This document shows, piece by piece, positions 1,748 through 59,888 of a stretch of 64,000 nt of DNA; the stretch's first letter is position 1, and each line of letters opens with the position of its first letter. This DNA is from a virus. The notes under the pieces were generated by a model. It was not told the DNA's origin. It worked only from the letters and a program-made list of their open reading frames with translations, and searched no databases. The stretch spans positions 12,078-76,077 of the IMG/VR virus record IMGVR_UViG_3300018080_000165; one strand, 5' to 3'. A program made the translations under genes and the position numbers.

Positions 1748-1955
1748 ACGCCCCCCGGTCCACGAGGAACTTGATGTGAGAGCATATCGTGCTCTTGCAC
1801 CGAGTACATGATATGCTCCCCGATCTGTACTGCGTGATTGTGAAGTGAGACTTCTTTGTTTTGACCTTGAACGTTTTCTGGATTTGGTTGCCGGTCCTGG
1901 AGAAGTCTCCCAACATGGTGTAGCGGAACATCTTGGTCTTGTACTTGCGCCTCAT
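1527..1955 (-). CDS. Hypothetical protein with SWIM-like Zn motif
   Basis: SCTRCKSTICSHIKF Cys/His cluster; abuts upstream gene. Confidence 0.55.
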   Translation of the reverse strand: MRRKYKTKMFRYTMLGDFSRTGNQIQKTFKVKTKKSHFTITQYRSGSISCTRCKSTICSHIKFLVDRGAFDTLAYVECLERRKQGGYVRRTGPAAEKNLPGRNPRDRGKASGRKISESGLVRVRKGGRRKGRFEASGFAFGD

Positions 1956-2538: not shown

Positions 2539-3363
2539 TCAGAAAGCGAACGACGACTGCCGCGCTTTCTTACCTCCTTCGATCCGGGCCTTGTGCTTCT
2601 TGAAATACGCGAGAAGAGCATTTCTTCTTTCGATCTTACTCTCCCTCTTCTTGCACAAGTCGATCATCTGACTGCCTTCGAGGCGAAGAAGACCCAATTC
2701 CTTGGCGGTCTTCCGGTAGTCCACGCCCGTCAACGCTTCCAGATAACCGAACTGGCTTTTCGTGATCTCGTTGCCAGGAACCCGATTGTATCTCCTCTTT
2801 CCCATCTTCTTCTGTTCGGACTTCGGCAGTCCGTTCTTTGTCCGTGCGTTGTCGATCATCGCGGACATCTGTTTCTTGGTATAATTGCCAACGACTGCCG
2901 TTCCGCTCAGGTCTTCGTAGTACCTGATTTGCTTCGCCGTGGCGGGTTCGTTCTCTCTCCTTTCCTTTTCCGCCGCCAACTCCGAAGGACGCTTAGCCGT
3001 CTTCCTTCTGGCGACACCGGCCTTCCACATCTCCTTCGCCCGTTCGCGGACACGTTTCAGCACGCCAGCCCAGTTCTCCGTTCGATTGATCCGAGTGGTC
3101 TTGGCCAACGGAGCTTCCTCTTCAGGATTCTCCCACCGCCGGACAGCGACAACGCGGATCGCGTCTTCCCCTTCCCCACGAAACTTGTCGCCTTTGATGC
3201 TGGAATAGATACGCACCCAGGCGCGAGTACGTAGCTTCTTCCCGTTCTCTTGCGCGACGATCTGCCGTTCGAAGACACGTTCCCCCTTGGACTCCGTTTC
3301 GAGGAACGACATGTTCAACATCAAATGCAAGAACCTTTTCACTTTTATCGAGTCACTCGGCAT
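2539..3363 (-). CDS. Hypothetical protein, ends QSSFAF
   Basis: 274-aa ORF in operon orientation. Confidence 0.75.
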   Translation of the reverse strand: MPSDSIKVKRFLHLMLNMSFLETESKGERVFERQIVAQENGKKLRTRAWVRIYSSIKGDKFRGEGEDAIRVVAVRRWENPEEEAPLAKTTRINRTENWAGVLKRVRERAKEMWKAGVARRKTAKRPSELAAEKERRENEPATAKQIRYYEDLSGTAVVGNYTKKQMSAMIDNARTKNGLPKSEQKKMGKRRYNRVPGNEITKSQFGYLEALTGVDYRKTAKELGLLRLEGSQMIDLCKKRESKIERRNALLAYFKKHKARIEGGKKARQSSFAF

Positions 3364-3758
3364 CCGTGGGTTCTCCTTCCTCTTCTTCCTCCCTCTTCTT
3401 CCTCTTCCAAGGTCCTTTGCCCTTTTTCGAAAACGTCGTACATGACTTCGAGAGACACCTTCCCTTCTCTCATGTACTCTTCGCCCGCGTCCTCAATCGC
3501 GTAGCGATTGTTCCAGATGTAAACGTGCGGCTTGTGACTGTTCTTCGAACGGGTGCGGAGATACAACTGCTCGTCGGCCACCAAATGACCGTCTTTCCAC
3601 ATCCGCTTTTTCACGAGATCGTGATCGCCCGCATTGAGCAACAGCTTGATGTGGTAGAGAAGCTGGGACTCTTTGCTTCCCCATGAACCGCCCTTGATTG
3701 GAGGATCACCTTTCTCCCGCGTGACGATCAGACTCGATCCTTCGAAAACAAGTTTCAT
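3345..3758 (-). CDS. Hypothetical protein
   Basis: ORF with AAGGA RBS. Confidence 0.7.
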   Translation of the reverse strand: MKLVFEGSSLIVTREKGDPPIKGGSWGSKESQLLYHIKLLLNAGDHDLVKKRMWKDGHLVADEQLYLRTRSKNSHKPHVYIWNNRYAIEDAGEEYMREGKVSLEVMYDVFEKGQRTLEEEEEGGRRGRRTHGCRVTR

Positions 3759-3770
3759 GGTTTTTCCTTT

Positions 3771-4058
3771 CTAATCCAGGTATTGAACTTTCACGGAACC
3801 CCGGAATCCGTGTTTTTCCATGTGATCTTTCGTGTAGTTCTCCCTGAAGACTTCGATTTCTTCCGGCGAGCGCCAGCCCGTGATGGTGCCTGTCACACCT
3901 GTTCCCGCTCCCTTCGCCGTGTAGATTCGACCAAACGTAGTGAGTTTGACCTTTCGCTTGCCATCCGTGTCGAAAGGCTTCCCGCACTTGTGGCACGCAT
4001 CCTGGAAATCGAGATCGAAGACCGTACCACAGGCATCGCATGTCCAGCTTGCCATCAT
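3771..4058 (-). CDS. Zn-ribbon protein
   Basis: WTCDACG...CHKCG. Confidence 0.7.
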   Translation of the reverse strand: MMASWTCDACGTVFDLDFQDACHKCGKPFDTDGKRKVKLTTFGRIYTAKGAGTGVTGTITGWRSPEEIEVFRENYTKDHMEKHGFRGSVKVQYLD

Positions 4059-4270
4059 TTCCCCTTTTCTCTGGTTCGCCCTTTCGAGTCCTGTTCCAGC
4101 ATACGTAGCCGACCCATGTGGCGAATCCAGCTTCGGTGGACAGGCTCGTCCCGCTTCACGCAATCGAGAATGTCGGGAAGCGCCTCCCGCATTTCCCGGC
4201 GCGTGGAACCCGTCTCCTTCTTCACGATGTCCAGGATCATCTTGGTCGGGAACTTCGAAAACAGTTTCAT
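4055..4270 (-). CDS. Hypothetical protein
   Basis: ATG after AAGGAG; ATGA overlap with next gene. Confidence 0.65.
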   Translation of the reverse strand: MKLFSKFPTKMILDIVKKETGSTRREMREALPDILDCVKRDEPVHRSWIRHMGRLRMLEQDSKGRTREKGK

Positions 4271-4283
4271 GGTTTTCTCCTTT

Positions 4284-4613
4284 TCAAAACGCGAAAGAAC
4301 CTTGCTTCGCTTTCTGGCCAACGTGCTTACCCCCACCTTTCTTCTTAGCCTTCAACTCCTTGTCCTTCCTGGCTTGCGCGGCCATCTTCGCCTTGTACGA
4401 GATTTCGTACAACTCCATCATCTCGTCCAGCTTGGACCGGACGCCTTTCGGCGTCCACTTGCCCTTGAGCCAGTACGCGCAAGCGGCGTACATGTGAGCA
4501 CCCGCCTGGGTGTCGTCGGCTTTCTTGGCTTCCTTGATGGCCGTAAGACTCTCTTTCTTCTTGGCCGGTTCCTTCTCCTTGACTGCCTTCTTCACAAGCT
4601 TTTTCTTTGCCAC
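4284..4613 (-). CDS. Lys-rich hypothetical protein, ends QGSFAF
   Basis: GTG start after AAGGAG. Confidence 0.7.
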   Translation of the reverse strand: MAKKKLVKKAVKEKEPAKKKESLTAIKEAKKADDTQAGAHMYAACAYWLKGKWTPKGVRSKLDEMMELYEISYKAKMAAQARKDKELKAKKKGGGKHVGQKAKQGSFAF

Positions 4614-4616
4614 TCG

Positions 4617-5054
4617 TTATCTCCTTTTCTTCCACACATCCCGGAAGTACCAGCCATACTCGGGAACACCATTGCCGTCGATCCTCTTGCACACCTGTCG
4701 GAGCGCAAGATCGAACAGTTCGAAGATGTCATCCTTGATGTCGTTCCGGTCTCTGCCGGAAATGGTGATCTTGAATCCTACGAACTGGGGACGCACAATG
4801 ACAGTGTGGTATGTCCACCCGTCGTAGAATCCATACTTGTTCATGTGGTGAAATGATGTGTCGAAAACCAACTTCTCTGCCGTCGAACGGTTGCAGTCCA
4901 GTGTGGTTCCGTCGTCGAACCCGCCCCCGGACGGATAAAACTGCTCTTCCATCCATTGAAGTGTGCTGTAGTACGCGTGCGTATGGTCATCCGTGCACCT
5001 TGTCAGCGCGTTGAGAATGGAAGACAACTCCTGTGCCACGGTGTATTCCGACAT
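4617..5054 (-). CDS. Hypothetical phage protein
   Basis: ORF with AGGAG RBS. Confidence 0.75.
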   Translation of the reverse strand: MSEYTVAQELSSILNALTRCTDDHTHAYYSTLQWMEEQFYPSGGGFDDGTTLDCNRSTAEKLVFDTSFHHMNKYGFYDGWTYHTVIVRPQFVGFKITISGRDRNDIKDDIFELFDLALRQVCKRIDGNGVPEYGWYFRDVWKKRR

Positions 5055-5078
5055 TTGAATCTCCTTTCTTCTCCGAAC

Positions 5079-5423
5079 TCAGACACGAGCCTGTGCCTTC
5101 AACTCTCCGTTCGCTGCGATCTCGTCTCCGTCCTTGAAAGGGAAGCCGCGTTTCCATCCTTCGTGCCAATACCACACGTGGGAATGTTGGCTGATCCTGT
5201 AGTTCCCAGGCAAGTACCGATTGATCCGGTCTTTCGTGGTGACGGTCTCCCATCCGCCCGTCACCACGATGATTCTGCCGTCCGGCTTGAAACGTAGGAT
5301 GTTGGTTCTGTGCAACCGGACGCAGATGTCCTTCCCGTCCCGCTCCAAGTAGGTGTTGTTCGTCAACTTACGGCTTTTCTTACACCTGCCTTGAAGCAAA
5401 CTGTCCGCTTTCTTGTAAGTCAT
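5079..5423 (-). CDS. Conserved-type phage hypothetical protein
   Basis: RLHRTNILRFKPDGRIIVVTGGWETVTTKDRIN pattern typical of phage early proteins. Confidence 0.7.
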   Translation of the reverse strand: MTYKKADSLLQGRCKKSRKLTNNTYLERDGKDICVRLHRTNILRFKPDGRIIVVTGGWETVTTKDRINRYLPGNYRISQHSHVWYWHEGWKRGFPFKDGDEIAANGELKAQARV

Positions 5424-5821
5424 TCCCGTTCTCCTTTCTTCTTCAAGAGTGTTTTGACGGCCCATTTGCGCATTGCCGCCCATTCGGTTCCGACACTGTT
5501 CCAACCCCCGCCCTTGTTCCAGGCGTCGTACAACTCTTGCGGGAGCGGAATGCCTTGCTCCCACGTCTTGCGGGAAACAGTCTTCGGCAAGCCGCTGTTA
5601 CCGTAAGCGCCGCACACGAAGACAGTCCTGTTCTTGACACGGGCACAGCCCATCATCCAATGTCCGCATTGCCTGAGTGCGACCTTGCGGACGATTCCAC
5701 GTAAATTGTTTTTCTTACCCACGTCCTCATCGTCCGGTTGCATGAGGATCAAAAACGGAGCGCGTCTGTGATGCTGCTCCGTACCTTTGTAGTACGTCCC
5801 TGCTTCATCTGTCACGTACAT
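5420..5821 (-). CDS. Hypothetical protein
   Basis: ORF with AGGAG RBS. Confidence 0.7.
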   Translation of the reverse strand: MYVTDEAGTYYKGTEQHHRRAPFLILMQPDDEDVGKKNNLRGIVRKVALRQCGHWMMGCARVKNRTVFVCGAYGNSGLPKTVSRKTWEQGIPLPQELYDAWNKGGGWNSVGTEWAAMRKWAVKTLLKKKGERE

Positions 5822-6191
5822 GCCGGTTCTCCTTTTTCATCAACCGGAATTGACCAGAACATATGGTCAATCTGCCGGACATCCTGTCCTTCTTGTTCTT
5901 TGCTGCGCACACATAGTTCTTCAAGCTACCGCCGGCAGGAACACGGGTTTTCACCCCGCATCTTTGGCAAACAACATCCCTTGTCTTCCGAACATACACC
6001 GTCTTTGCCTTCTTCTTCGTTTTGGTCCCGCTCCCGAAGATTTCGGGATGGCTCTTTGCCAAGCGTTTGTTCACCGCTTCCAGAAGCGCGTTGTTAGGAT
6101 CGTTGTCCATCGCTTCGCCCAATTTCACGAACTCCTCATCCCGAAGATGCTCTTCGAGAACCTTCGCTGTCTTCACGAAAATCGCTTGCAT
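5805..6191 (-). CDS. Hypothetical protein with CxxC
   Basis: VVCQRCG; AGGAG RBS. Confidence 0.7.
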   Translation of the reverse strand: MQAIFVKTAKVLEEHLRDEEFVKLGEAMDNDPNNALLEAVNKRLAKSHPEIFGSGTKTKKKAKTVYVRKTRDVVCQRCGVKTRVPAGGSLKNYVCAAKNKKDRMSGRLTICSGQFRLMKKENRHVRDR

Positions 6192-6244
6192 GATTCTCTC
6201 CTTTCAGATTGTGTTTTCGTCACTTGTGAAAACGAAGAAGTCAA

Positions 6245-6592
6245 TCAACCTTTCTCACGTAGCACACACCCACCAGTGCTCTCTTGATTTCGTGTTCGGC
6301 GGACTTCTTCGCTTCGAGAGCATCCTCTTCCCGACGATGTACTCCGTACTCGGGATGGATTCTCGACTCTTCTTCCGTTGTCATCGTACCCTAGAGAACG
6401 CGCGGCTTGATGGACGTACTCAGCAAACTTCGCGTCCACCGCCGAAAACTCGACGCCCTGTTCTCTCATTGCATCGACCGATTCCAAGGTCTTTTCCCCG
6501 ATCTTGGCGATGTCCAGGATGTGCATGTCGTCTTCACGACCCAAGACGACAGCAACTTCGTACAAAAACGCTTTGACACGACCCATGGTCAT
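6245..6592 (-). CDS. Hypothetical protein (first gene after structured leader)
   Basis: ATG after GAGGGAG. Confidence 0.6.
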   Translation of the reverse strand: MTMGRVKAFLYEVAVVLGREDDMHILDIAKIGEKTLESVDAMREQGVEFSAVDAKFAEYVHQAARSLGYDDNGRRVENPSRVRSTSSGRGCSRSEEVRRTRNQESTGGCVLREKG

Positions 6593-6599
6593 CTCCCTC

Positions 6600-7275
6600 T
6601 CTTTCTTCGGTTCACTTCTCAAAGGCCACTAGCAGTGCTCCCGGCGTTTTCGCGATCCGCCGCTTTTTGCGTCGCGCCTAACCCGCGCTTTCAAGCCAAC
6701 GTGCCGACCTGTTCCGCGCTCGTGACGCCGCATTTTGTTTTCGGCTTGAATCGACATACCAGAAGCATTAGCTAGGGGTCTTTTCCCCTATCCACGGCGA
6801 GACTGCGACTTTGCACGTGCATTCCCCGCGACCTGGCCTATCGGCACGGCCCGCTATGGTTTTGGATTGCCTTACGGGACGAGGTTTGCACGCGACAGCT
6901 TTTGCCAAGACTTAGAACCTAACCATTCCGGTTTTCTGGATTAGGACGGGAGCGAAGATGGCCCGCTTGTCACCACCTAGCCCGATCCGCCGTTCGTCCG
7001 AAGGTCTGCTTGGCCGCTTGTCCGTCTCTGTGTGTTCGCAACCGGGTGCTTTCCCGGTCCACTCGCGGTTTGCGGCCCGCCCCTAGCAATCGTCTCCCGA
7101 CGATTCCGTGGGCGCGAACCCCGCTCTTAATCCTGCGATTCATTCCCGCGACCTTGGCTTGCTCCGTTGGATTCGGCTTCAGGCCGTACCCTAGCTCGGG
7201 TTCCCCGCGCGTCACATAGAACGCGATAACCGGGTTTCGCCGTCGCTCGTAAATCGCTCAATTGTCAAAGAACAT
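6600..7275 (-). ncRNA. Candidate large structured non-coding RNA / 5' leader
   Basis: No credible ORF; multiple hairpins (7088-7105 with GNRA loop, 7041-7058, 6773-6790, 6690-6750), long-range helices and a duplicated internal motif. Confidence 0.6.
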
Positions 7276-7316
7276 TATACTATGTGGCATTATAGCGAAA
7301 TGCCAGCATAGTGCAA
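7261..7316 (-). promoter_or_regulatory. Sigma70-like promoter with overlapping inverted repeat and downstream boxA-like site
   Basis: TTGCAC(7316-7311)-N16-TATAAT(7294-7289); IR 7279-7312; TGTTCTTTGACAAT at 7274-7261. Confidence 0.65.
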
Positions 7317-7477
7317 GCACAGAAAAAACTTTTTCACGTGAAATTTCACTAATTCCTGCACATGGTGCACAAGTGCAGGATAGGGCCACATCTGCTTATA
7401 GGTTATCACATGACGGTAGACGGGGTTTACCAGATTACCTCTATGCGAGCAAAGAAAGGGTATAAGTGACCTTGAAC

Positions 7478-8242
7478 CTATGCCATGCCGAGAAACTTGT
7501 GAACCTGTGGGACAAACCTGACGGCCAAACACCTTTTCACATCGTCGCTGAACGGAAAGGCAAAAGCACATTGATTTGTTTCACGTTGGTTTGAAAACAC
7601 CTTGTCTTTTTCGGAAAAGATTCCACTCTCCAATATCACCTTTATCGCATCTGGATGGCCGTCAGCGGGTTGGATGAAAACTTCTCTCACAAAGACTTCT
7701 TCTTTCAGGATTTCCTCGACTTCCCTCATGTCCTGTTCCGTGCCGACAACGAACTTGAAATAGCAATTCGTCATATAACGGACCAATGTAGGAAGCGCAC
7801 TGCGCCTACCGGAGCTAGAGAGTTTCGGAGAAATGATCCATGCGTCAATGCAAACGAAATGTTTCGGATCGCACTTGTCCAGAAGTTCCCCGTTCGTTTC
7901 GATTGAAGTCCCGAACGCCGGTTCGATCTCTTTGCAGATTTGAACAATCTGTGGAAGGAAGATAGTAGGCTCACCGCCAGTGAAAACAACATGGCGCTTG
8001 TGAAGAGGAAAAGACTTCAAAACAGAAATAACATACTCGACAGATAACGAAAGGTGTTTTGTTTCCGCCTGACTCGGTTTGATATTTTCCGGTTTGTAGC
8101 CGCTATCGCACCAACTACATGTTCGATTGCATCCAAGAGTCCTCAGAAAAACAGAAGGAAGGCCAACTGTTGGACCTTCCCCGGAAATCGTCTCATAAAT
8201 TTCATGTACACCAATTTCTTTAGGAGTTCCTTGCCTCCGCAT
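7478..8242 (-). CDS. queE: 7-carboxy-7-deazaguanine synthase (radical SAM)
   Basis: EIYETISGEG, FLRTLGCNRTCSWCDS, TGGEP, ETNG, ISPKL, PQVHK. Confidence 0.92.
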   Translation of the reverse strand: MRRQGTPKEIGVHEIYETISGEGPTVGLPSVFLRTLGCNRTCSWCDSGYKPENIKPSQAETKHLSLSVEYVISVLKSFPLHKRHVVFTGGEPTIFLPQIVQICKEIEPAFGTSIETNGELLDKCDPKHFVCIDAWIISPKLSSSGRRSALPTLVRYMTNCYFKFVVGTEQDMREVEEILKEEVFVREVFIQPADGHPDAIKVILESGIFSEKDKVFSNQRETNQCAFAFPFSDDVKRCLAVRFVPQVHKFLGMA

Positions 8243-8636
8243 AAGATGTATTCGTTTCCCAAACGCGAAGGGAGTCCAGTCTTGCGGATTCATGCTCGAA
8301 ACACTCCTTCATCTCCGCGAACCAATGAAGCGCCAACACTTCAACCGTAGGGTCTTGATGGATTATGAACACGTGTTCCCTGAAGCCGCCCTCAATGAGA
8401 ACGCCCGCGAGAGGATCGTCTATTTTGAGAACGACTTTATGATCCCATCTCTCCACGACGTGTTTCAACTTTTTGAGTTCCGCGAAGTCCACCACAAATC
8501 CGTTGTCGCCTATGTTGCCGTAGGCCGTCAACTCCACGCGGTAGTTGTGCCCGTGCAAGAAACGACACTTCCCTTCGTGCCGCATCAACCTATGGGCGAT
8601 AGAGAACTCGCCCAAAAATTTCGTTACCTTGACCAT
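8220..8636 (-). CDS. queD: 6-carboxytetrahydropterin synthase
   Basis: AHRL...CRFLHGHNY, VVDF, DH, PTVE, VWET. Confidence 0.93.
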   Translation of the reverse strand: MVKVTKFLGEFSIAHRLMRHEGKCRFLHGHNYRVELTAYGNIGDNGFVVDFAELKKLKHVVERWDHKVVLKIDDPLAGVLIEGGFREHVFIIHQDPTVEVLALHWFAEMKECFEHESARLDSLRVWETNTSYAEARNS

Positions 8637-8640
8637 TAGT

Positions 8641-8838
8641 TTACCTCATTCCTAGGCTACCTCTTCCTTTGTCCTTGCACGCATTCCGACCGAGTTTTTG
8701 TTCGATCCACACTTGCGCCATGGGCCGATCTTCTTTCTTCAACGTCTTGAAATCCTCAAAGCACTCATTACACACGGCATGTCCCGCGATTGTCCTATGA
8801 GGATTCCCTTCGTTTTCCCGGCAGGCGCAACATCTCAT
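8641..8838 (-). CDS. Small Zn-finger protein
   Basis: CCAC...CNEC. Confidence 0.6.
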   Translation of the reverse strand: MRCCACRENEGNPHRTIAGHAVCNECFEDFKTLKKEDRPMAQVWIEQKLGRNACKDKGRGSLGMR

Positions 8839-8841
8839 ACC

Positions 8842-9264
8842 CTACTCTCCTTTGTCTTCTTCGGATTTTTCACCTTCATCTTCCTTGGGCGCTTCTTCAG
8901 GGGATACGACAGTCTTCGGAGGAGCGTCAAAGACGTACTCGACAGTCTTGTTCTTTACGGCTTCGGTGAAATTCCGAAACATGTTCACGCAATCGACACG
9001 GTTCTCGTAGCCTTGCCCGCCTTGCGAGCCGGTGCCGAAGAGATAATTCCCGTTGGCACTGTACACGCTTACCTCGTGTTTGGCTTTCTTTCCCTTTCCC
9101 TGCCTGCTGAACACGACTTGATGAGTCATCTTTCCTGAAATCGCCATTGATTCGCTCCTTTCTTTCTCTTCAATCTTACTTCTCCAAAAAGCAAAAAACG
9201 ACAATGCTCCCACAAGAGCTATGATCGTGAGCGCATACATTAGGTCTACCATGTGATCTCTCAT
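8842..9264 (-). CDS. Membrane-anchored protein with YegP/DUF1508-like segment
   Basis: N-terminal TM helix; VYSANGNYLF...GQGYENRVDC resembles DUF1508. Confidence 0.5.
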   Translation of the reverse strand: MRDHMVDLMYALTIIALVGALSFFAFWRSKIEEKERSESMAISGKMTHQVVFSRQGKGKKAKHEVSVYSANGNYLFGTGSQGGQGYENRVDCVNMFRNFTEAVKNKTVEYVFDAPPKTVVSPEEAPKEDEGEKSEEDKGE

Positions 9265-9309
9265 GGTTTTACTCGCTCGTGATTCGAAGTTCTCCAAAAC
9301 AGCGCGTCG

Positions 9310-9599
9310 TGGCTCCCCCGCCTGGATTCGAACCAGGAATCGCGGATTACGCAGAAAGACGGAGCCTCCCAACAGTAACGGCACGATGACAAACAGCACA
9401 GAGCAACACGCACTTCTCAGCTTCTTTCCGCAGTCGTTCATATGATTCATTACACCCAGCAATTACAAATAGCTTTCGTATGCCTTTTCGATGATGAAAG
9501 TCAAAGCCTTCTCGCCCATCTCGCGTCGGCGTTTTGTCTTCGTCCCTTTCTGCATTTTCAATCTCCTTCGCCGTCGTGATACCATTTCACCACAGGGAA
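9310..9599 (-). tRNA. tRNA-Asn-like gene interrupted at the anticodon loop by a 221-nt insert (probable pseudo/split tRNA)
   Basis: 5' half 9599-9571 TTCCCTG-TG-GTGAAATGGTATCAC-G-ACGG; 3' half 9349-9310 TAATCCGC-GATT-CCTGGTTCGAATCCAGG-CGGGGGA-G-CCA; acceptor stems pair. Confidence 0.75.
9347..9570 (-). pseudogene. HNH endonuclease C-terminal remnant inside the tRNA
   Basis: Frame reads FDFHHRKGIRKLFVIAGCNESYERLRKEAEKCVLLCAVCHRAVTVGRLRLSA*, no ATG start. Confidence 0.7.
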
Positions 9600-10166
9600 T
9601 CATTTTATGTGCTCCAGGATTTCATCCTTGACTTGCAAACCCGCTTGCCCGAGCACGACGCAGACTTTGGTCGCCGCATGGATGTCACCAGTTCCCGTGC
9701 ATACACACGCATGGTGGGCCTTGGAGAGAACGCAAACGGCTTCAGGTTTGAGCCTTTCTTCAAGCTCTGCGGCGATTCTATGCGTGAACTCTTCTTGAAG
9801 AGTTCCGACCTTCGAGAAGAATTCAACCAACTGTGGAAGTTTCGAGAATCCGACGATGTGTTTTCCTGGTAAATAACCGATTCCGACTGTCCCATAGAAC
9901 GGCACGAAGTGATGTTGGCAGATCGATACGAAACAGATGTCTCGCATGACAACGATGTCGTTCCCTCTTGATTTGAACAACTTGAAGTCGAAAGGTAATC
10001 GGTGAGGATAGCGATCATTGATCTTGTCCTTGTTCGCTGTCATCTGTTCAAGCATCTTGACGACACGCCGGGGAGTCTCCAGCGTTTCGTTCTTCAGCTT
10101 TATGCCTAGATGGTGGCACATCCGGGCATAGGCTTTTTCAGCCGATTTACGCTTTCTGGCGTTCAC
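9600..10166 (-). CDS. folE: GTP cyclohydrolase I
   Basis: ETPRRV, SICQHHFVPFYG, VGFSKL, LQEE, HACV. Confidence 0.92.
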   Translation of the reverse strand: MNARKRKSAEKAYARMCHHLGIKLKNETLETPRRVVKMLEQMTANKDKINDRYPHRLPFDFKLFKSRGNDIVVMRDICFVSICQHHFVPFYGTVGIGYLPGKHIVGFSKLPQLVEFFSKVGTLQEEFTHRIAAELEERLKPEAVCVLSKAHHACVCTGTGDIHAATKVCVVLGQAGLQVKDEILEHIK

Positions 10167-11519: not shown

Positions 11520-11923
11520 TTTCTTTCTCCTTCCGCTGTGCAACGTATCCTCACACCGCCGCGAGAGTTGAACGTGGTACTCACACTCACAGTCAAAGGA
11601 TCGATGGCTTTCAAGAAGTCATCTCGAATCCTTGCTGTGATGCTTTCCTGAAACGCCTTGAAGTTCCTGTAGCTCCCCAAGTACAGCTTCAGCGACTTCG
11701 ATTCACAGATGCTTTCGAAAGGCGTGTACTGTATGTCGATTGCCCCGAAGTCCGGTTGTCCCGTCACCGGACAGAGAGACGTGAACTCTTCGAAAGAAAT
11801 GCAGATACTCGGCGTTGGATGCTTCACTTGGAAAGGAACGCCTACGAGCAAGGATGGCGAATATTCTTCTGGAAACGGAACCACTTTGCCGAGCGGGATG
11901 TCTTCCATGGCCGTACCGTCCAC
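11510..11923 (-). CDS. queF: NADPH-dependent preQ0 reductase (unimodular)
   Basis: EFTSLCPVTGQPDF catalytic Cys, QueF motif ESKSLKLY, RGG. Confidence 0.9.
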   Translation of the reverse strand: MDGTAMEDIPLGKVVPFPEEYSPSLLVGVPFQVKHPTPSICISFEEFTSLCPVTGQPDFGAIDIQYTPFESICESKSLKLYLGSYRNFKAFQESITARIRDDFLKAIDPLTVSVSTTFNSRGGVRIRCTAEGERKCP

Positions 11924-11933
11924 TGCGGAGAGT

Positions 11934-11989
11934 AAAAGAAAAAGGCGAGTATTTCTAGCGTCCGCAAACGCTAACGGTTGACTCGCCTT
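11934..11989 (-). terminator. Intrinsic terminator upstream of queF
   Basis: AAGGCGAGT...ACTCGCCTT stem with inner TAGCGT/ACGCTA helix followed by TTTCTTTT. Confidence 0.7.
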
Positions 11990-12006
11990 CCCCCTACAAC
12001 GAATGC

Positions 12007-12162
12007 TTACGGTCGCGGGGGACGCCTTCGCTTGCCAGCCTGCACGCCCAGGCGCTGTCTGCCACGGCCTGCCGCTGCACCCCCACGGCGACGGCCTGCA
12101 CGAACGCCTCGACGCCCTTTGCGGCCTGCCGCTGCTGTTCCCCCCTTTCCTCCCCCTGGCAT
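12007..12162 (-). CDS. Protamine-like Arg/Gly-rich peptide (51 aa)
   Basis: GAGGAGG RBS; MPGGGKGGTAAAGRKGRRGVRAGRRRGG...KRRRPPRP. Confidence 0.75.
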   Translation of the reverse strand: MPGGGKGGTAAAGRKGRRGVRAGRRRGGAAAGRGRQRLGVQAGKRRRPPRP

Positions 12163-12213
12163 GATCGCCTCCTCTCTTCCTTGTACCGGCCTGAGTGCCA
12201 GTACGACGATCAC

Positions 12214-12242
12214 AGCCTAGTAGAATCCCGGCTTCCCGTCAA
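12214..12242 (-). promoter_or_regulatory. Putative sigma70-like promoter
   Basis: TTGACG-N17-TAGGCT in intergenic gap. Confidence 0.5.
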
Positions 12243-12703
12243 GCGGACGGCTTATCCGAACTTGCTTCTTGAGGGGTTATTTTATGCACAGGACGCCAGT
12301 TTGCAACCCTGAAATTCTTGTGATTCTCAGGAACCACACTCACAAGGCGCAAAACTGAGCAATCTTTGATGATTTTTTCCTTCGTTTCCCGGTTCTCGAC
12401 TACGACGCTCGTCCAGTAGGGGATACAGGCGACACGCAGCCTGGAACGCTTGGTGACGAAATCCCTGTTGATGGCCCTGCATGTGATGATCGCGCACTTG
12501 TACGCTTGGTGGCCCGCGTTCGCCCCGAGAAAGACGAACTCGATAGGGCGCACTCCCCGTGCCCACAGGTTGTAGGCGTCCATCCCTATCTTGAAAACTT
12601 GGGTCGCTCCGCTGATCCTCACAGACCCCCGGTGGTAGCTGTACTCAGCCTTCTTCACCGAGCCGGTCTTCTCTTCTTTGATGTTCCCGTTTGCTTCCGG
12701 CAT
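12239..12703 (-). CDS. SpoVS-like (Alba-fold) protein
   Basis: FLGANAGHQAYKCAII and VACIPYWTSVVVENRE align with SpoVS IGAGALNQAVKAVAI and LICIPAFTDIQIDGEE. Confidence 0.65.
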   Translation of the reverse strand: MPEANGNIKEEKTGSVKKAEYSYHRGSVRISGATQVFKIGMDAYNLWARGVRPIEFVFLGANAGHQAYKCAIITCRAINRDFVTKRSRLRVACIPYWTSVVVENRETKEKIIKDCSVLRLVSVVPENHKNFRVANWRPVHKITPQEASSDKPSA

Positions 12704-13059
12704 TGTTCCATCCTCGCTTTCGGCAGTAGGGCAGCAATGGTTTTGATGTCTCCCGGATCGATCAACACAAGGAACTGAGGGCATCCCTTCTGTCTGTGTT
12801 GTCGCCGTTGGGCCAAGGCCACGATGAGAGGCTTACCCTCTTCCTGTGCCTTGGGAAGCTGCTCCTTCCACAGCTCCACAGCCGCGTGCTTGTCGCGGTA
12901 CTTCGTTTCGATGTAGAAGTGAGGGCTACGGGAGTCTGATTGGGTGTCGTGGCCCGAGTTGCTACCAGACAGAGGAACGCGCTTGGTTCCGAAGAACGCC
13001 GCTACATCGGCTTCGACCTTCTTCCAGTGCTTCGATCTCTGCTTCGCTGTGCGGGCCAT
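12655..13059 (-). CDS. Hjc-like Holliday junction resolvase
   Basis: E...RVPLSGS...SD...IETK PD-(D/E)XK pattern. Confidence 0.75.
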   Translation of the reverse strand: MARTAKQRSKHWKKVEADVAAFFGTKRVPLSGSNSGHDTQSDSRSPHFYIETKYRDKHAAVELWKEQLPKAQEEGKPLIVALAQRRQHRQKGCPQFLVLIDPGDIKTIAALLPKARMEQCRKQTGTSKKRRPAR

Positions 13060-13080
13060 GACTCTCTCCTGATCTGCCGA

Positions 13081-13108
13081 AGTCTACGAGGTTTTCACCG
13101 CCTGTCAA
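13081..13108 (-). promoter_or_regulatory. Putative promoter
   Basis: TTGACA-N16-TAGACT in intergenic gap. Confidence 0.5.
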
Positions 13109-13156
13109 CCATTTCCTCTTCGACTTCTCGTTGATGACTCGGCTTTCTCCGGCAAC

Positions 13157-13648
13157 TCAAGCTCGACTAGAGCGTTCATACTCGACACTCCTTCTGCTTT
13201 GATCGCGGCTCAACGCCTTGGATTTCCGGTCGTAGTTGTCCACTCGCGTTTCAAGGGCGATTTTCATCGCCTCAAGTTCCTCGCACCTACGGACCAACTT
13301 TTGAATCTTCGGATCAAGGTCCATCTCCGCATCCTGTTCGTACTTCTTTTTCCCTCCGCTTGCGAATCGAATCCTCGCCCTTGCCGTGCGCAAACTTCTT
13401 TGCGCACCGATCAACTGGATTCTCGTTTTGGCGAGATGATCGTTGGCATAGGCATACCACGCCACCATAGCCGTGTAAGCTCGTTGCAGCCTCTTGGGCG
13501 GCAGGCGTGTAGGGTCAATCGGCATTTGCGCCGTGCTGTCCTTCGGCTTGTCCGTATCGACGATACCTACAGCGCGAATGCGGCGCTCCGTTTCTTCGAG
13601 GATGGTCCTTTTCTTTTTGCTTTTCGTCCCTTTGCGTTTTTTAACCAT
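13157..13648 (-). CDS. Coiled-coil protein, possible UvsY-like recombination mediator
   Basis: Helical heptads with DLDPK turn; in recombination cluster. Confidence 0.5.
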   Translation of the reverse strand: MVKKRKGTKSKKKRTILEETERRIRAVGIVDTDKPKDSTAQMPIDPTRLPPKRLQRAYTAMVAWYAYANDHLAKTRIQLIGAQRSLRTARARIRFASGGKKKYEQDAEMDLDPKIQKLVRRCEELEAMKIALETRVDNYDRKSKALSRDQSRRSVEYERSSRA

Positions 13649-14475
13649 TTCCTTCCCTTTCTCTCATCCCAACAAATGTTGGTGTAGAAACATCCCTTGC
13701 AAGGAAAACGGTGCACAGACTCCCCTTCCCTCTTCGGCAACTTCCGGTTGTCCACGTGGTCACGGAGATAATCCAAACGCTTCTTCCGTTTCCTTTCGTC
13801 GCTCTTGTTGAACTCGAAAAACGTCTCGCGCAACGTTTGATCGTTCTTGTTCTCGTAGATGAACACGGCACGATGAATCTTCAAGTGCTTCATGTACATG
13901 TGAATCTGCTGCTTGTACCCTTCCTTCCCGTAATGCCGTCCAAGGTTCTTGAAGCCGTAGTCATTGATGGATTTGAAATCGACGATGTACTTCTTCCCCT
14001 TTAGACTCACTATGGCGTCACAGGTTCCTTGTTCATCGCCGACAGTGAAGGGAACTTCGATGTCATCTATCGTACAAAGGCCCATTCGGACGAAGAGGAC
14101 TTGCATTCGCAAGTGAAGCGAATCGCCCGTGGCAAAGATTCGCTGTGACTTGGCGATGTCCGCGATACCACCCATCGGAGGTTTGTTCTTGGGTGCGCGC
14201 ATGGATTTGTAGACAGTCCTTCTAGCGCATCCCCCGATAGCGGAAGGATGATAATACTTGTCCCTGTAGTCTTTCTTCGCGGCCTTCCACTGCTTGAACT
14301 TGCGTTCGGCCAATGCCAGTTCGATCTTTGCTTCGGCACGCCGAATGTCAACGTCCGTTATTTCCCGGCGCATGAGGGCCATCTGTTCATCGTAAAGGAA
14401 GCGATCAATGACGTTGATGAACGAGACTTTCCTCTTCTTCATCTTGTTCACGTCTTTCCACAGGTTGCGAAGCAT
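13567..14475 (-). CDS. Cas4-like PD-(D/E)XK exonuclease, ends AAFAL
   Basis: PSAIGGC...G..H...D...DFKS...QIHMY...CKGCFYTNIC four-Cys pattern. Confidence 0.85.
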   Translation of the reverse strand: MLRNLWKDVNKMKKRKVSFINVIDRFLYDEQMALMRREITDVDIRRAEAKIELALAERKFKQWKAAKKDYRDKYYHPSAIGGCARRTVYKSMRAPKNKPPMGGIADIAKSQRIFATGDSLHLRMQVLFVRMGLCTIDDIEVPFTVGDEQGTCDAIVSLKGKKYIVDFKSINDYGFKNLGRHYGKEGYKQQIHMYMKHLKIHRAVFIYENKNDQTLRETFFEFNKSDERKRKKRLDYLRDHVDNRKLPKREGESVHRFPCKGCFYTNICWDERKGRKWLKNAKGRKAKRKGPSSKKRSAAFAL

Positions 14476-14869
14476 TCTTCTTTGACTCCCTGTATTTGTC
14501 GATCTGACCCTTAGCTTCTTTCAAACCAAGACCTGTTCTGGCACGGTACTTCTTGACGGCAGGAATGATTCCATCCTGAATGTGTTTATCGACCAGCTTC
14601 TTCTCTTCCTCGTTCAATTCTGGAAACGTACCAACACGAACGGCCTTGGTGATCTCCGGGTACGCTTGCCACACATGAGCCGCCCGAGTAGTGACCACGC
14701 GATGCTCCGTTCCGGGAGCGTAGGCGTCGATATACTTCTGAAGTGTTCTTTTCTTGTGCGCCGTCACAAGATCGACAGTTTCATATTCGAAGCCTTTTCC
14801 TTTGATAGTTCGCAAAAGTCCGTAGTAAGTCCGCTTCGTCCTTGTACCAAACCCCATTGCGCTAGCCAT
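14405..14869 (-). CDS. Protein with ribosomal L7/L12 C-terminal-like domain
   Basis: IIPAVKKYRARTGLGLKEAKGQID. Confidence 0.7.
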   Translation of the reverse strand: MASAMGFGTRTKRTYYGLLRTIKGKGFEYETVDLVTAHKKRTLQKYIDAYAPGTEHRVVTTRAAHVWQAYPEITKAVRVGTFPELNEEEKKLVDKHIQDGIIPAVKKYRARTGLGLKEAKGQIDKYRESKKNASQPVERREQDEEEESLVHQRH

Positions 14870-14979
14870 GATCGTTTCTCCTTTCGGTCAGTGAAAATGC
14901 AAACGCGGGTTCAAGGCGTCGGCTCTCCCTCTCCCCCGCGTTTGCAAGCCGCCCGTCCCAGGGGGCAGCCGTTTTCCAA

Positions 14980-15414
14980 CTAGTTACCCAATGTTTGTGC
15001 ACAAAATGTACACAAATTAACCTTCTTGACGCAGCATCCATCACACACACGTTGCCCACACGAAGGGCATGTGCTCAATTCCCATGGAGGTGTAGAAGAA
15101 ATACAAATAGCACAAAAATGATCGTCATCATCTAACTCATCATCTAACTCATCATCGTCTTCAACTTCTGCGTTGGCTTTTTCAATACACTCATCACAAT
15201 GCCCATCACACTCGTTGTCGCAGCCACAAACGGTGTCAAAACAATCAGAACAAATAGGCTTTTTCTCAGTTTCCATTTCAATGAAAAACACACAAAACGG
15301 ACACGTATTCTGTCCGCACACACAACACTTACGGAGTTCTGTGCCCGCCCTTCCGCAAACACCGCATTTGCAACTATCGGGCATTCGCTCTCCGGTTAAT
15401 CCGTCTTCGATCAT
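14980..15414 (-). CDS. Cys-rich multi-Zn-finger protein with acidic linker
   Basis: Many CxxC pairs in two clusters; AT-richer DNA than flanks. Confidence 0.7.
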   Translation of the reverse strand: MIEDGLTGERMPDSCKCGVCGRAGTELRKCCVCGQNTCPFCVFFIEMETEKKPICSDCFDTVCGCDNECDGHCDECIEKANAEVEDDDELDDELDDDDHFCAICISSTPPWELSTCPSCGQRVCDGCCVKKVNLCTFCAQTLGN

Positions 15415-15697
15415 TCCGTGTCCCTTTCGCGTTCGCACTTCTTGAAACCGGACGAAGATTCGATGAAGCGTTTTTGCTTGTCGGCCCGCCCTGAATGTTG
15501 TGGTTCTTCTTGTCCCGCGTCACGGGCTTGACATGGCCAACAAGTTTTCCCGTCCCGCGTAACTTGTCCCGCATCTTTGCCATGTTCGCCCATCTTCCGT
15601 CCTTCCAGTTCGATCCCGCCTTTCCCTTCTTGCTCCCTGAACCTTTGCCGCCCACTGTTACGCCCTCCTTTTTCTCTGCTTCGTAAGCCAGCCCCAA
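15374..15697 (-). CDS. Basic protein, degenerate HNH/NUMOD-like
   Basis: GSNWKDGR and VGH...NLRPVSRSAN. Confidence 0.45.
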   Translation of the reverse strand: MGLAYEAEKKEGVTVGGKGSGSKKGKAGSNWKDGRWANMAKMRDKLRGTGKLVGHVKPVTRDKKNHNIQGGPTSKNASSNLRPVSRSANAKGTRNDRRRINRRANAR

Positions 15698-16234
15698 GAT
15701 CGACCAAGTTTGATGTCTGTAATCGTAACTTGATGAACACCAAACTTCCTAGAGATTTCAGTTGGGCCTTCACCTTGCGCTAACAATCGACAGATACGGC
15801 GCACATCTCTTTCCTTCAACTTAGCCCCGTTTTGCTTCGATCCTTGAACATGCGTTCCGTGCCGCTTTTTGTCAGCTATGTTTTCTTTCTTAGTCCCCCA
15901 AACCAAATTGCCGATCCTGTTATTGGCCGGGTTCCCGTCCAGATGACGGCATTCCATGCCTTCAGGACACGGGCCGACGAAAGCAAGAAGCACAAGACGG
16001 CAAACCTTGAAGTTGAACGACTTGTTGCTAAGGCTAAACGTAATGATCGGTCTTCCGTTTTCCGAGATGTTGTGCGGGCGTATCCTGGCCGTCTGGCCGA
16101 TGAAGTGTCTAAAGCCACGACACGCCCCCTCTTGTTTTTCGCGCCCAAAAAGAACGCACACGTCCCTGGTCGGAGACTTCATATCCTTCCCATCCGGGAA
16201 TGGGCTTCCAGATTTCTCTCTTCCGCCCGCCCAT
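15658..16234 (-). pseudogene. NUMOD4-HNH homing endonuclease with a frameshift
   Basis: ATG 16234 gives MGGRKREIWKPIPGWEGYEVSDQGRVRS (NUMOD4); HNH (CRHLDGNPANNRIGNL) is in +1 frame after a G5 run at 16125-16129. Confidence 0.75.
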
Positions 16235-16245
16235 CGCTCTCCTCC

Positions 16246-16476
16246 TCAATCTCCGTTCACTGCTTCAAACTTGAACACTTCCCCCGGCAAAAAGTTCTTG
16301 GCTTCTTCCTTGGGCACGAATATACGAAGCTTTCCATCGTCCACGTCTACACAGTTTTCCTTTCCATCCTGTGTGTATCGCAAACACGCGGAAAACAACA
16401 CACTGTAAGCGTTATCGGCCATACTTTCTCTTGCGATGCCTTCCACACGCAAATCAACTTCCTTTAATATCAACAT
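16246..16476 (-). CDS. Hypothetical protein
   Basis: ORF with AGGAG RBS. Confidence 0.6.
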   Translation of the reverse strand: MLILKEVDLRVEGIARESMADNAYSVLFSACLRYTQDGKENCVDVDDGKLRIFVPKEEAKNFLPGEVFKFEAVNGD

Positions 16477-16786
16477 TTTTTTCTCCTTTCAGGAACTCGA
16501 CAAGATCGGGATTGAAAACGGCAAACACATCATCCTCTTCTTTCATAACTTCGACAACTTCTTCGACAGTAGGCGTAGGGCGTTCTCCGCATGAGTACCT
16601 TGCATCCATCACGTAACGCTTCGCTTCCACTTCCCGCAACTTCGTAAAGAGAGGATGATTCCGAACAAACTTATCCGCTTCGTTCTTGCAAGGACAACAA
16701 ATATATGCCGTGATTCCTCCTCGAAACTTTGTCATTTCCCTGCCGAAAAGACCGGCTGCTCTTCCACATCGCTCACACTTGTTCAT
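16454..16786 (-). CDS. Zn-binding hypothetical protein
   Basis: CERC...CCPC. Confidence 0.65.
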   Translation of the reverse strand: MNKCERCGRAAGLFGREMTKFRGGITAYICCPCKNEADKFVRNHPLFTKLREVEAKRYVMDARYSCGERPTPTVEEVVEVMKEEDDVFAVFNPDLVEFLKGEKNVDIKGS

Positions 16787-16787
16787 C

Positions 16788-16943
16788 TCAAATCTCCTTC
16801 CCTCTCAGCGCCCGGTACTTCTCCAAAGCTTCCTCTTTTGAAGCACAGCTTTTCAACTCCAAGTACCATTCCCTAGGCAGCTTCTTCCCGTGGACTTTCT
16901 TAACTGCGCGAAGGATTTTCTTTTCCTCCTTGTACCGGGCCAT
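16788..16943 (-). CDS. Small basic hypothetical protein (51 aa)
   Basis: AAGGAG RBS; MARYKEEKKILRAVKKVHG... Confidence 0.55.
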   Translation of the reverse strand: MARYKEEKKILRAVKKVHGKKLPREWYLELKSCASKEEALEKYRALRGKEI

Positions 16944-17130
16944 GTAGGTTTCTCCTTATCGCCCTCTTTGCCTTGTGCTCGATTCCCGGTGACGCTTCCG
17001 TGTGCGCGCCACTGAGAGGGATGTTCACTATCTCGCCGTTTGGCATCCGGTAAATCTTGTGACTCCCCTTGCTACGTAGGAACTTTCCCCCTTCACTCTC
17101 CACTAATCTGATTAAGGCTTTTGTCTTCAT
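16900..17130 (-). CDS. hicA: HicA-family mRNA interferase-like protein
   Basis: LIRLVESEGGKFLRSKGSHKIY...VNIP...H signature. Confidence 0.75.
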   Translation of the reverse strand: MKTKALIRLVESEGGKFLRSKGSHKIYRMPNGEIVNIPLSGAHTEASPGIEHKAKRAIRRNLHGPVQGGKENPSRS

Positions 17131-17311
17131 CGAGTTTGTCTCCAAAGGCCAATACGAACGCCCCGATCAACGCAGACGCTTCTTTTGAATTAATGGGGCG
17201 GTTTTCTCCGCTTACCCCGAACCAGGTTTCTCCGGTTGTGTCTCGGGAAACAGTTAGAGACGGACCTTTCCGCAAGTGCACATTAATTTCAAGATCGATC
17301 TCAGGCATCAC
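17093..17311 (-). CDS. Hypothetical protein
   Basis: GGAGG RBS. Confidence 0.55.
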   Translation of the reverse strand: MMPEIDLEINVHLRKGPSLTVSRDTTGETWFGVSGENRPINSKEASALIGAFVLAFGDKLDEDKSLNQISGE

Positions 17312-17428
17312 TCATCCTCCACAAAGTGATAGTCGAACGTTGATTCCGCCAGGACATACACGCGCATGTCCTCAATCCCTAAGCTGTTTGCCACACTGTT
17401 CCACAATGTATCTTACTCACCCTCTCTT

Positions 17429-17746
17429 TCATTCTCTAAGTCTCCTTTCTATCGCATCTCGGACAAAATCAAAAGTTGTCTCGGTCAAAATATAAACATT
17501 CACATCTTGAATTTGAATCTCCATGAGCGGTTCCAATCCTTCTTTAGCCGCCCGTTCAATGATCTTCTCGATGTCAGCCTTCTTCAAGATGATTTGTTTC
17601 TTGTCCGTCCTCTTACATTCCGCAAGCCACTGCGGACCTTTCACATCCCCTTTGTTGCGCCATCCGCATCCCGATCCCGGCTGGACACGCCCGTTCAACT
17701 TCTCAGCCAAGCGTTTCTCTTGTTGATCCGATTTCAGCCGCTTCAT
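17429..17746 (-). CDS. Second Hjc-like resolvase/endonuclease
   Basis: QEKRLA...PGSG...KGDV...AECK. Confidence 0.75.
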   Translation of the reverse strand: MKRLKSDQQEKRLAEKLNGRVQPGSGCGWRNKGDVKGPQWLAECKRTDKKQIILKKADIEKIIERAAKEGLEPLMEIQIQDVNVYILTETTFDFVRDAIERRLRE

Positions 17747-18855
17747 AGCGCGAACGCCTTTCTGTTCTTCTTCTGCCGCTTTTTCGCTTTATCCCCGGTG
17801 CGCTTCAGTTGGAGTTTTCCTTTGTGTACCTTCATCACATCGTTGTACAAGTCCTGCAAGACGTACTTGTCCATGTAGATTTTCTTGCAGAACTTCTCTC
17901 TCCCGTTGGCCTTGATCCCCTGATAGGAGTAGGCGTGTCCCTTCTTTCGGACAATCCCGTATACCACGGCCATGGGAAGAAGGTCAAGCGCATTGTCGAT
18001 GGTTCCCCCTTCCCGGTATCCATATGCCCGATTGTAGAAGTTGAAGAATCCCCGTTCGTTCGCGTTGCCGCCGGTCTTGTTCTTCACAACGACGAATCCC
18101 ACCGTTGTTCCCACGGCCTGTTTCAACGTCTCCCCGCTTTCCTTGATTTCCTCATAGATGTAGCCTTTGCGGTACAGCTTCACGCAGACAGATGCCGCGT
18201 GTTCAAGCGCCTTTCCCCCCGGTGCCGTTTCAGGATCGCCGAACATCACGCCGATTTGAACACGGACTTGATTCAACAAAAGGATGGTCGATTTCGGCGT
18301 AGAAGAAAGCAAATCCTTCTTCAATCGCGGAATCAGCTTACGCAGCATCTTGGACACGAAACGCGGGTGCATCCCGACACTGCTTTTCTCCATCTTCTTC
18401 TCGACTTCGAAGTGCGGTGTGATAGCACCGATGGAATCGAAGATCACCAAGACTTGATCCCCCTCGTCCAACACATCGCAAACGATGTCCACGGACTGTT
18501 CGCTTGTCGTCGGCGACACGAGAAGGAACTTGTTCGGATCGGCGTCGAGGAACTTCAACCACTTCACATCGAAAGCGTTCTCCACATCGATGTAGACAAC
18601 GTACCGCTTCTTAGGCTCTTTCTTGATGAACTTCGTGGCTCCGCAAATAGCGAGCGTGCTTTTATACGCGCTGTAGTGTCCTATGACTTCGTTTATCCGG
18701 CCTTCCACGAAGCCCCCGCCTAGAGCAATATCAAGGGAATGGCTCCCTGTGCTGAAACGCTTGATCGTCAATCCAAGTGCATCGCTGGCACGGACGATTG
18801 TTCCCCTACCGTAGCGTTTATTTATGCGGTTCATCACAGTCTCTATCGACATCAC
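17743..18855 (-). CDS. recA: RecA/UvsX-like recombinase, ends KAFAL
   Basis: STGSHSLDIALGGG, IDVE, IFDS, NQVR, GVMFGDPETAPGGKAL, KNK. Confidence 0.93.
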   Translation of the reverse strand: MMSIETVMNRINKRYGRGTIVRASDALGLTIKRFSTGSHSLDIALGGGFVEGRINEVIGHYSAYKSTLAICGATKFIKKEPKKRYVVYIDVENAFDVKWLKFLDADPNKFLLVSPTTSEQSVDIVCDVLDEGDQVLVIFDSIGAITPHFEVEKKMEKSSVGMHPRFVSKMLRKLIPRLKKDLLSSTPKSTILLLNQVRVQIGVMFGDPETAPGGKALEHAASVCVKLYRKGYIYEEIKESGETLKQAVGTTVGFVVVKNKTGGNANERGFFNFYNRAYGYREGGTIDNALDLLPMAVVYGIVRKKGHAYSYQGIKANGREKFCKKIYMDKYVLQDLYNDVMKVHKGKLQLKRTGDKAKKRQKKNRKAFAL

Positions 18856-59880: not shown

Positions 59881-59888
59881 AAGACTGT

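Follow-up and report, generated by a model that had tools for sequence, protein, structure and literature searches.

Unrelated proteins of a tailed phage end in a common basic tail with a fixed FA[F/L]-type tip

Introduction

The stretch of DNA analysed here, a window of 64,000 nucleotides (bases 12078-76077) that covers most of a linear IMG/VR virus record of 76,077 bp (IMGVR_UViG_3300018080_000165), raises the question of why several proteins with nothing else in common should end in the same short peptide, a lysine- and arginine-rich run closed by Phe-Ala-Phe or Phe-Ala-Leu at the free carboxyl terminus. The record is that of a tailed phage, as seen from its major head protein, portal and large terminase; its completeness according to CheckV is ~79%, and its coding lies almost wholly on the minus strand. 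To our knowledge, shared terminal peptides that address one hub are known only in a few model phages, namely on three T4 proteins (with the clamp as hub) and on two T7 proteins (with the polymerase). An earlier note on this DNA had proposed, from four proteins, a phage-wide docking tag with some likeness to the β-clamp motif, and had named a degron or a capsid targeting signal as alternatives. Here we describe the tail across the whole record, the level at which it is selected, its fate in homologues, and the readings that it allows.

Results and discussion

A basic run and a four-residue tip

Eight genes of the record, all on the minus strand and four of them outside the window, end exactly in [G/S/A/P]-F-[A/S]-[F/L]-COOH after a run rich in K and R (Table 1). 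The four outside sit just left of the window and are given in L001 coordinates, which belong to the same virus record. The protein encoded at 1527-1955 ends in GFAFGD and has the only non-terminal copy among the nine tails. When these nine are aligned, counting back from the last residue of the tip, five positions are fixed in 9/9: K or R at -9, a small residue (G, S, A or P) at -4, F at -3, A or S at -2, and F or L at -1. The 20 residues preceding the tip contain 5-10 K or R per tail, with a net charge of +4 to +9 except in a single tail, where it is +1; a spacer of 1-3 small or polar residues sits between this basic run and the tip. Disorder-promoting residues make up 63-87% of the final 30 residues, and the tails contain Gly, Pro and Ser, without an amphipathic helix.

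The tip varies with its carrier: it is [G/S/P]-F-A-F on four orphan proteins (with GFAFGD on a fifth), G-F-S-F on two adjacent orphans, and A-F-A-L on RecA and the Cas4-like nuclease, the two enzymes of known function. The four open reading frames (ORFs) from which the earlier note set out, those of proteins E and F, the nuclease and RecA, lie on the minus strand with the endings it gave, and the two looser instances it mentioned, the SGFAFGD ending at 1527-1955 and an internal QCAFAF in QueE, are likewise present.

Table 1. Positions of tag carriers, candidate partners and other features mentioned in the text. Plain coordinates refer to the window; L001 coordinates refer to the same virus record, outside the window.
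Feature	Position	Strand	Length	Description
Tagged protein E	2539-3363	-	274 aa	DUF3072-like repeats; ends KKARQSSFAF; F-A-F codons at 2542-2550
Tagged protein F	4284-4613	-	109 aa	Lys-rich; ends QKAKQGSFAF; start 4 nt past the end of the upstream gene
Cas4-like PD-(D/E)XK exonuclease	13567-14475	-	291-302 aa	Ends KKRSAAFAL; PHROG 1706/1990, E 1e-30 and 1e-23
RecA/UvsX-like recombinase	17743-18855	-	370 aa	Ends KKNRKAFAL; PF00154, E 1e-49
Near-terminal case	1527-1955	-	142 aa	CxC...CxH (SWIM-like) cysteine pattern; ends RRKGRFEASGFAFGD
Tagged gene	L001:5311-5766	-		Ends KKSPFAF
Tagged gene	L001:6918-7274	-		Ends KQKGFAF
Tagged gene	L001:7584-8183	-		Ends KKEGGFSF
Tagged gene	L001:8194-8691	-		Ends KKEEGFSF
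Candidate partner, putative gp32-like SSB (a protein that binds single-stranded DNA)	21923-22888	-	322 aa	Basic N-terminus, ~100-residue poly-Asp/Glu, C-x6-C-x2-C core, acidic end
Second hyper-acidic protein	2-1339	-	448 aa	~110-residue poly-Glu/Asp, internal KKKRAFAY
MoxR-type AAA+ ATPase	L001:10416-11654	-		bpMoxR PF20030, E 1e-28; PF07728, E 1e-16
Weak VWA protein	L001:8825-10519	-	525-564 aa	E 0.004-0.01, below cut-off; four tagged genes directly downstream
QueE	7478-8293	-		Internal QCAFAF
Best PDZ_2 (PF13180) match	48237-48395	-		Within a 160-aa ORF of the structural module; not significant
DpdA-like queuine/7-deazaguanine transglycosylase	L001:3159-4442	-		PHROG 887, E 7e-41
DpdA-like fragment	L001:446-1516	-		Matches C-terminal part of the family, E 2e-10
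Large terminase ORF	57112-59976	-	954 aa	Terminase match only at residues ~72-235
L7/L12-like segment	14405-14869	-		Small protein
L7/L12-like segment	L001:6322-6675	-		Small protein

The carriers are unrelated to one another. An all-against-all BLASTP comparison returns only low-complexity K-rich matches, on which ground paralogy was rejected, and seven of the nine (all except RecA and the nuclease) have no Pfam or PHROG family, protein F among them. For protein E the Atlas gives a DUF3072-like lead only; among 5.8 billion proteins it has no homologue except itself, the identical copy lying on a 96 kb contig. In RecA, the tail falls outside the conserved core, as judged from the RecA alignment. 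Seven of the nine genes lie within ~5.5 kb of a MoxR/VWA pair, and the two enzymes in the replication module. The tag was not found on head, portal, terminase or tail proteins, nor on the family A DNA polymerase (PolA, which ends in ...DSWATAKN), the primase or the helicases. A capsid or virion targeting signal, as the earlier note had considered, is judged unlikely, given a structural module with no tagged protein.

The related string FAFG occurs three times in the record, where a rough composition estimate gives ~0.3: in QueE (PFAFGKR, residue 9), in the DpdA-like fragment (PFAFGND, residue 62), and at the C-terminus of the 1527-1955 protein (GFAFGD). The core of the tag may thus have internal copies as well.

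Selection acts on the protein

Among the 866 ORFs of at least 30 aa in the six frames of the whole record, nine end in F[AS][FL], namely the eight genes described above and an ORF of 35 aa that lies inside another gene. On the plus strand, not one of 489 ORFs has this ending. The earlier note held that the pattern would fall if its enrichment vanished genome-wide, and it does not: in the minus-strand gene set 7-8 terminal copies are seen, against 0.09 expected from amino-acid composition, while internal F[AS][FL] is seen 29 times against 17.7 expected. The enrichment is thus ~80-fold at the C-terminus and only 1.6-fold internally, and 8/9 copies sit at the exact terminus. As a control, 5232 ORFs were called in the same way from 286 loci of other RecA- or Cas4-bearing phages and contigs of metagenome-assembled genomes; six of them end in F[AS][FL], and none combines this ending with at least four K or R at -13..-4. 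The Poisson probability of at least eight such endings is ~2e-9, even when the ORF count of the phage is inflated to 286.

A pattern of this kind could also arise by chance or from the DNA itself, if a repeated element, a terminator or a ribosome-binding site lay across the gene ends, an explanation to which we give practically no credence. The one segment that fits it is in the L001:7584 gene, where GAAGGAGG within the codons for KKEGG can act as a Shine-Dalgarno sequence for the overlapping next start; otherwise the Shine-Dalgarno sequence of the next gene lies mostly 3' of the stop codon, and the DNA 3' of the tagged stops is unrelated between genes. The codons vary at every wobble position (TTT or TTC at -3; GCG, GCA, GCT, TCT or TCC at -2; TTC, TTT, CTG or CTA at -1), which bears out the protein-level selection that the earlier note had read from its smaller set. 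On these grounds a DNA-level repeat or ribosome-binding site was rejected, and the Poisson probability (~2e-9 or lower) and the lack of the ending among the plus-strand ORFs argue against chance. Since the codons differ at wobble positions, the carriers show no paralogy outside their tails, and the ribosome-binding site of the following gene is mostly found past the stop, selection is on the protein: the tail is a selected C-terminal tag on unrelated proteins.

Nothing comparable was found when the other RecA- or Cas4-bearing phage loci were searched for recurrent C-terminal tripeptides. In four loci of a RecA-bearing IMG/VR phage group (L050, L052, L053 and L054), two ORFs per locus end in IPL, which may represent an SSB-type tail common to two proteins.

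Homologues share the basic extension and have other tips

A DNA search of the phage database found no close relative of the phage, and a search of IMG/VR with protein E, RecA and MoxR as queries found none either. Alignments of RecA and the nuclease to proteins from IMG/VR, JGI metagenomes and GTDB genomes stay at or below 37% identity (RecA reaching 37% at best), the best cultured match of PolA is at 32%, and the relatives that reach 40-50% identity to the nuclease or to RecA are Logan/ENA proteins only. The phage belongs to a lineage without a cultured relative.

At 40-49% identity, homologues of the nuclease resemble it up to a conserved Trp and then continue into basic tails, the tips of which are TSAF, LPKK, SPKE and ISLL, none being FA[FL]; more distant, shorter homologues are tailless. 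The nearest RecAs (50, 47 and 41% identity) end in KKLTWA, SEAAFG and KLKLRK. Basic tails are found in about one-third of the best 150 RecA representatives, several with alternating K-φ-K-φ (φ being a hydrophobic residue), and among these 150 only the RecA of this phage ends in F[AS][FL]. Other-phage RecA homologues (P0014, P0018, P0059, P0062, P0073 and others) have K-φ-K-φ-K tails such as KLKLRK, KFKLKLRK, LKFKMRIKK and KLKIRMGK, which may be a different and more widespread C-terminal motif.

The earlier note had taken the lack of the tail in related phages as a point on which its proposal would fail, and the outcome is divided: the FA[FL] tip is indeed missing at 40-50% identity, but the basic tail is kept. 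Because the nuclease and RecA homologues at this distance keep a basic tail and end in other tips, the FA[F/L] tip is lineage-specific, and the basic extension is the older and more widespread part. The absence of the tip from these homologues argues against a universally conserved host pocket, not against a lineage-specific tag.

A docking peptide and its possible partners

The enrichment of the tail and the lack of paralogy among its carriers leave a phage-wide tag on unrelated proteins, as first proposed in the earlier note, as the simplest reading; the docking role that came with that proposal, the mode of binding and the partner are what we infer. We tentatively favour, as possible though short of probable, a two-part docking peptide that would most likely tether its carriers to one common partner. 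The disordered K/R run would provide long-range electrostatic capture by an acidic surface of the partner; the F-x-F/L tip, with a small residue between its hydrophobic residues and another before them, would then enter a hydrophobic pocket as an extended strand, and this pocket would probably also read the free carboxylate. We propose a pocket-bound peptide with a carboxylate read because the motif occupies the exact terminus, with φ-small-φ spacing, a small residue before it and a flexible basic lead-in. The basic tails with other tips in the relatives are as expected for a lineage-specific reader. One common partner would gather recombination, nuclease and accessory proteins at one site.

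The basic run by itself permits another reading, in which the tail is a non-specific anchor to polyanions or membranes (DNA or single-stranded DNA, anionic lipids in the manner of MARCKS, or a coacervate with the poly-Asp/Glu proteins) and no pocket is involved. At least six K or R within the last 15 residues are found in 21 minus-strand ORFs of the phage, compared with 4.5% of the control ORFs, and the basic tails in about a third of the phage RecA homologues as well as the two hyper-acidic proteins of the phage are in keeping with such a role; basic peptides with Phe bind acidic membranes and single-stranded DNA. Non-specific anchoring accounts for the basic runs, but not for the rigid tip: it requires neither the exact terminus nor the small residues at -4 and -2 and the F at -3 seen in 9/9 tails, and the tails, with their Gly, Pro and Ser, contain no amphipathic helix. 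The five positions fixed in 9/9 tails fit pocket recognition better than non-specific binding, and we consider pure anchoring very improbable.

If the tail is a docking peptide, its partner would most likely be phage-encoded and acidic, the leading candidate being the putative gp32-like SSB, whose gene lies between those of the primase and the polymerase in the replication module. A phage acidic hub is ranked first because the phage encodes acidic proteins and because in T4 the acidic part of the SSB acts as the recruiting hub, the C-terminal domain of gp32 bringing in gp59, UvsX, UvsY and Dda (PMC11551737). RecA and the Cas4-like nuclease, as two DNA-transaction enzymes among the carriers, would be plausible clients of such a hub. 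The Atlas model of the candidate resembles clusters of which about half the members are annotated as gp32 (PF08804 in 52%; TM 0.69, feature score 0.86); a homologue search with its SSB-like domain gave no match, and the identification as a gp32-like SSB is a lead only. The second hyper-acidic protein has no Pfam or PHROG family and continues from its acidic stretch to a histone-H1-like, Lys-rich C-terminal tail of ~55 residues; its internal KKKRAFAY resembles the A-F-A-L flavour of the tip.

Several points weigh against a docking tag read by this candidate. The Pfam gp32 profile has no match in the record, the candidate ORF included, so that Atlas look-alikes are the single source of the gp32-like assignment, and the single-sequence model of the SSB-like domain is unusable (predicted local distance difference test score, pLDDT, 36). 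The SSB hubs that are known carry the hydrophobic tip on the tail of the SSB and not on its clients; with the tip on the clients, the polarity here would be reversed. Many further proteins of the phage end in a basic tail that lacks the tip, and the basic run alone may simply bind DNA. Finally, since the record is ~79% complete and protein E is also found on a contig of 96 kb, the gene of the true reader may lie in the missing ~20 kb or in the host.

One conceivable host reader is the β sliding clamp, for which the tail would be a variant binding motif of the hexapeptide class (QLxLxL), placing the phage proteins on host DnaN. The terminal φ-small-φ agrees with the final three residues of the hexapeptide form, the C-terminal clamp motif of Pol IV being QLVLGL; three tails read Q-x-x-F-A-F-COOH, and Gln at -6 in 3/9 has a probability of ~0.004 at a Gln frequency of 4%. 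DNA enzymes are the usual clients of clamps, and here RecA and the nuclease are tagged; terminal motifs with which phage proteins bind host or phage clamps are known from MuC (PMC12867686) and T4 (PMC2988020). The bacterial consensus is QL[SD]LF (PMC12867686), however, and the tails depart from it, and from the QLxLx[LF] form with which the earlier note had compared them: the remaining six have K, E, E, A, S and R at -6, and position -5, which would be the second of the motif, is S, K, G, E, S, S, G, A and K, so that there is neither a Leu or other hydrophobic residue at this place nor an L-F pair. PolA is untagged, the canonical clamp motif is found at the terminus of no phage protein, and the DnaN (PF00712) and gp45 (PF02916) profiles have no match in the six frames of the ~79%-complete record. 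Relatives at 40-50% identity have other tips, even though bacteria differ little in their clamp pocket. Judged by these points, the clamp reading is weak, survives only as a hexapeptide-class variant, and seems improbable to us.

A serious rival, though in our estimate an unlikely one, is that an AAA+ machine recognises the tail as a C-terminal degron or handle and so times the removal or remodelling of its carriers; this machine would be a host unfoldase/protease of the ClpXP type or the MoxR/VWA pair of the phage itself. C-motif-2 of ClpX substrates is a basic run with a hydrophobic end (R/H-x-K/R-K-φ, as in MuA ...NRRKKAI; PMC3983244; PMC12723719), which the ends of RecA (...KKNRKAFAL) and the nuclease (...KKRSAAFAL) resemble, and the exact terminal position suits a reading of the free carboxylate. 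A MoxR ATPase and the weak VWA protein are encoded directly upstream of four tagged genes, and the VWA partner of NorQD docks with its two final residues on the hydrophobic post-sensor-1 loops of the MoxR ring (PMC13036017). Here, however, the 1-3 small residues split the basic run from the tip, which is F-x-F/L and not a single aliphatic residue; a degron would be of little obvious use on a recombinase and a nuclease needed throughout replication; the phage VWA protein ends in ...DDIAKAASD, unlike the tag; and with a conserved host ClpX as reader the tip should also be present in relatives, which it is not.

Taken further, the docking-tag reading would give the phage an addressing system of its own, in which the FAF-COOH tag and a phage receptor gather the recombinase, the nuclease and the orphans into one replication/recombination factory, a proposal that we regard as doubtful. 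Candidates for the receptor are the gp32-like SSB, the second poly-Glu protein and the MoxR/VWA machine, and the factory might be a charge-driven condensate. If it proved true, lineage-specific C-terminal address tags would stand as a general and so far undescribed organising principle of phage infection.

The interest of the tail lies in its spread and definition: one sharply defined tag, of opposite charge to the T4 epitopes, is borne by eight or more proteins that are unrelated and that include six complete orphans. If a reader exists, the tag would give proteins that cannot otherwise be annotated one cellular address or fate in common, it would be a ready affinity handle for the hub, and the system would be a further case of a possibly general phage strategy. 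Were the tail a degron or a DNA anchor instead, it would still be a compact, portable signal.

Other features of the record

Besides PolA, the replication genes comprise a DnaG-type primase, a DnaB-type helicase and a superfamily 2 helicase; the phage also encodes a 7-deazaguanine pathway in addition to RecA and the Cas4-like exonuclease. Left of the window lie a DpdA-like transglycosylase, a staphylococcal-type nuclease and the MoxR AAA+/VWA pair. As the record contains the DpdA-like enzyme, the preQ pathway of the window has a transglycosylase partner; a second ORF outside the window matches the C-terminal part of the same family (Table 1). The large terminase ORF, beyond the segment that matches terminases, has a short recombinase-like match at residues 573-607, which may point to an insert or fusion. 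In two small proteins there is a stretch that closely resembles the C-terminal domain of ribosomal L7/L12 (...TGLGLKEAK...), with PF00542 E-values of 5e-4 and 1.5e-5, below or at the cut-off.

Relation to known systems

Class II PDZ ligands end in φ-x-φ-COOH, a form that F-A-F-COOH and F-A-L-COOH fit formally and that is present in 8/8 exact tails. Bacterial PDZ readers are mostly periplasmic, and a profile search of the record finds no PDZ domain above the cut-off; the best PDZ_2 match has an E-value of 0.095 and 9.5 bits, where the cut-off is 27.

The tails of SSBs offer another parallel. That of E. coli SSB ends in ...DDDIPF, and T7 gp2.5 and gp4 end in Phe. In these proteins a charged disordered segment with a terminal aromatic residue, in form like the present tails, serves as the universal handle of a replication and recombination hub (PMC11551737 for T4 gp32). 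The charge is reversed, however: SSB tails are acidic and sit on the hub, whereas the tails here are basic and sit on the presumed clients, which are not SSBs. The gp32-like candidate itself ends in ...EGAEMDED, without a terminal aromatic residue.

ClpX C-motif-2 (MuA ...RRKKAI) shares with the tails a basic cluster followed by a hydrophobic C-terminus on phage proteins, but it lacks their fixed plug of four residues, in which two positions are aromatic or aliphatic, and the spacer before it. Bacterial β-clamp motifs (MuC QPDLF, the Pol IV C-terminus) are likewise short terminal peptides with φ-x-φ, and the Gln six residues from the end has its counterpart in three of the nine tails; they differ in their hydrophobic second position and their L-F pair, where the tails here have polybasic flanks and, in 6/9, no Gln. 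In NorD/NorQ, as in this phage, a MoxR AAA+ protein and a VWA partner are co-encoded, here adjoining four tagged genes (PMC13036017 for docking); the docking tail of NorD is the VWA protein's own, whereas the phage VWA protein lacks the tag, and the tag is linked to MoxR by position only.

A precedent for the arrangement as a whole is T4, where gp43, gp55 and gp33 carry common, interchangeable C-terminal epitopes that bind gp45 (PMC2988020); there as here, unrelated proteins bear similar peptides at their extreme C-termini, joined by a variable linker. T4 encodes its clamp and tags its polymerase, whereas the ~79%-complete record yielded no clamp gene and its PolA bears no tag. Hydrophobic residues are common to both sets of epitopes, but those of T4 are acidic and those of this phage strongly basic (+1 to +9); and the T4 set comprises three carriers, whereas the set described here comprises at least eight.

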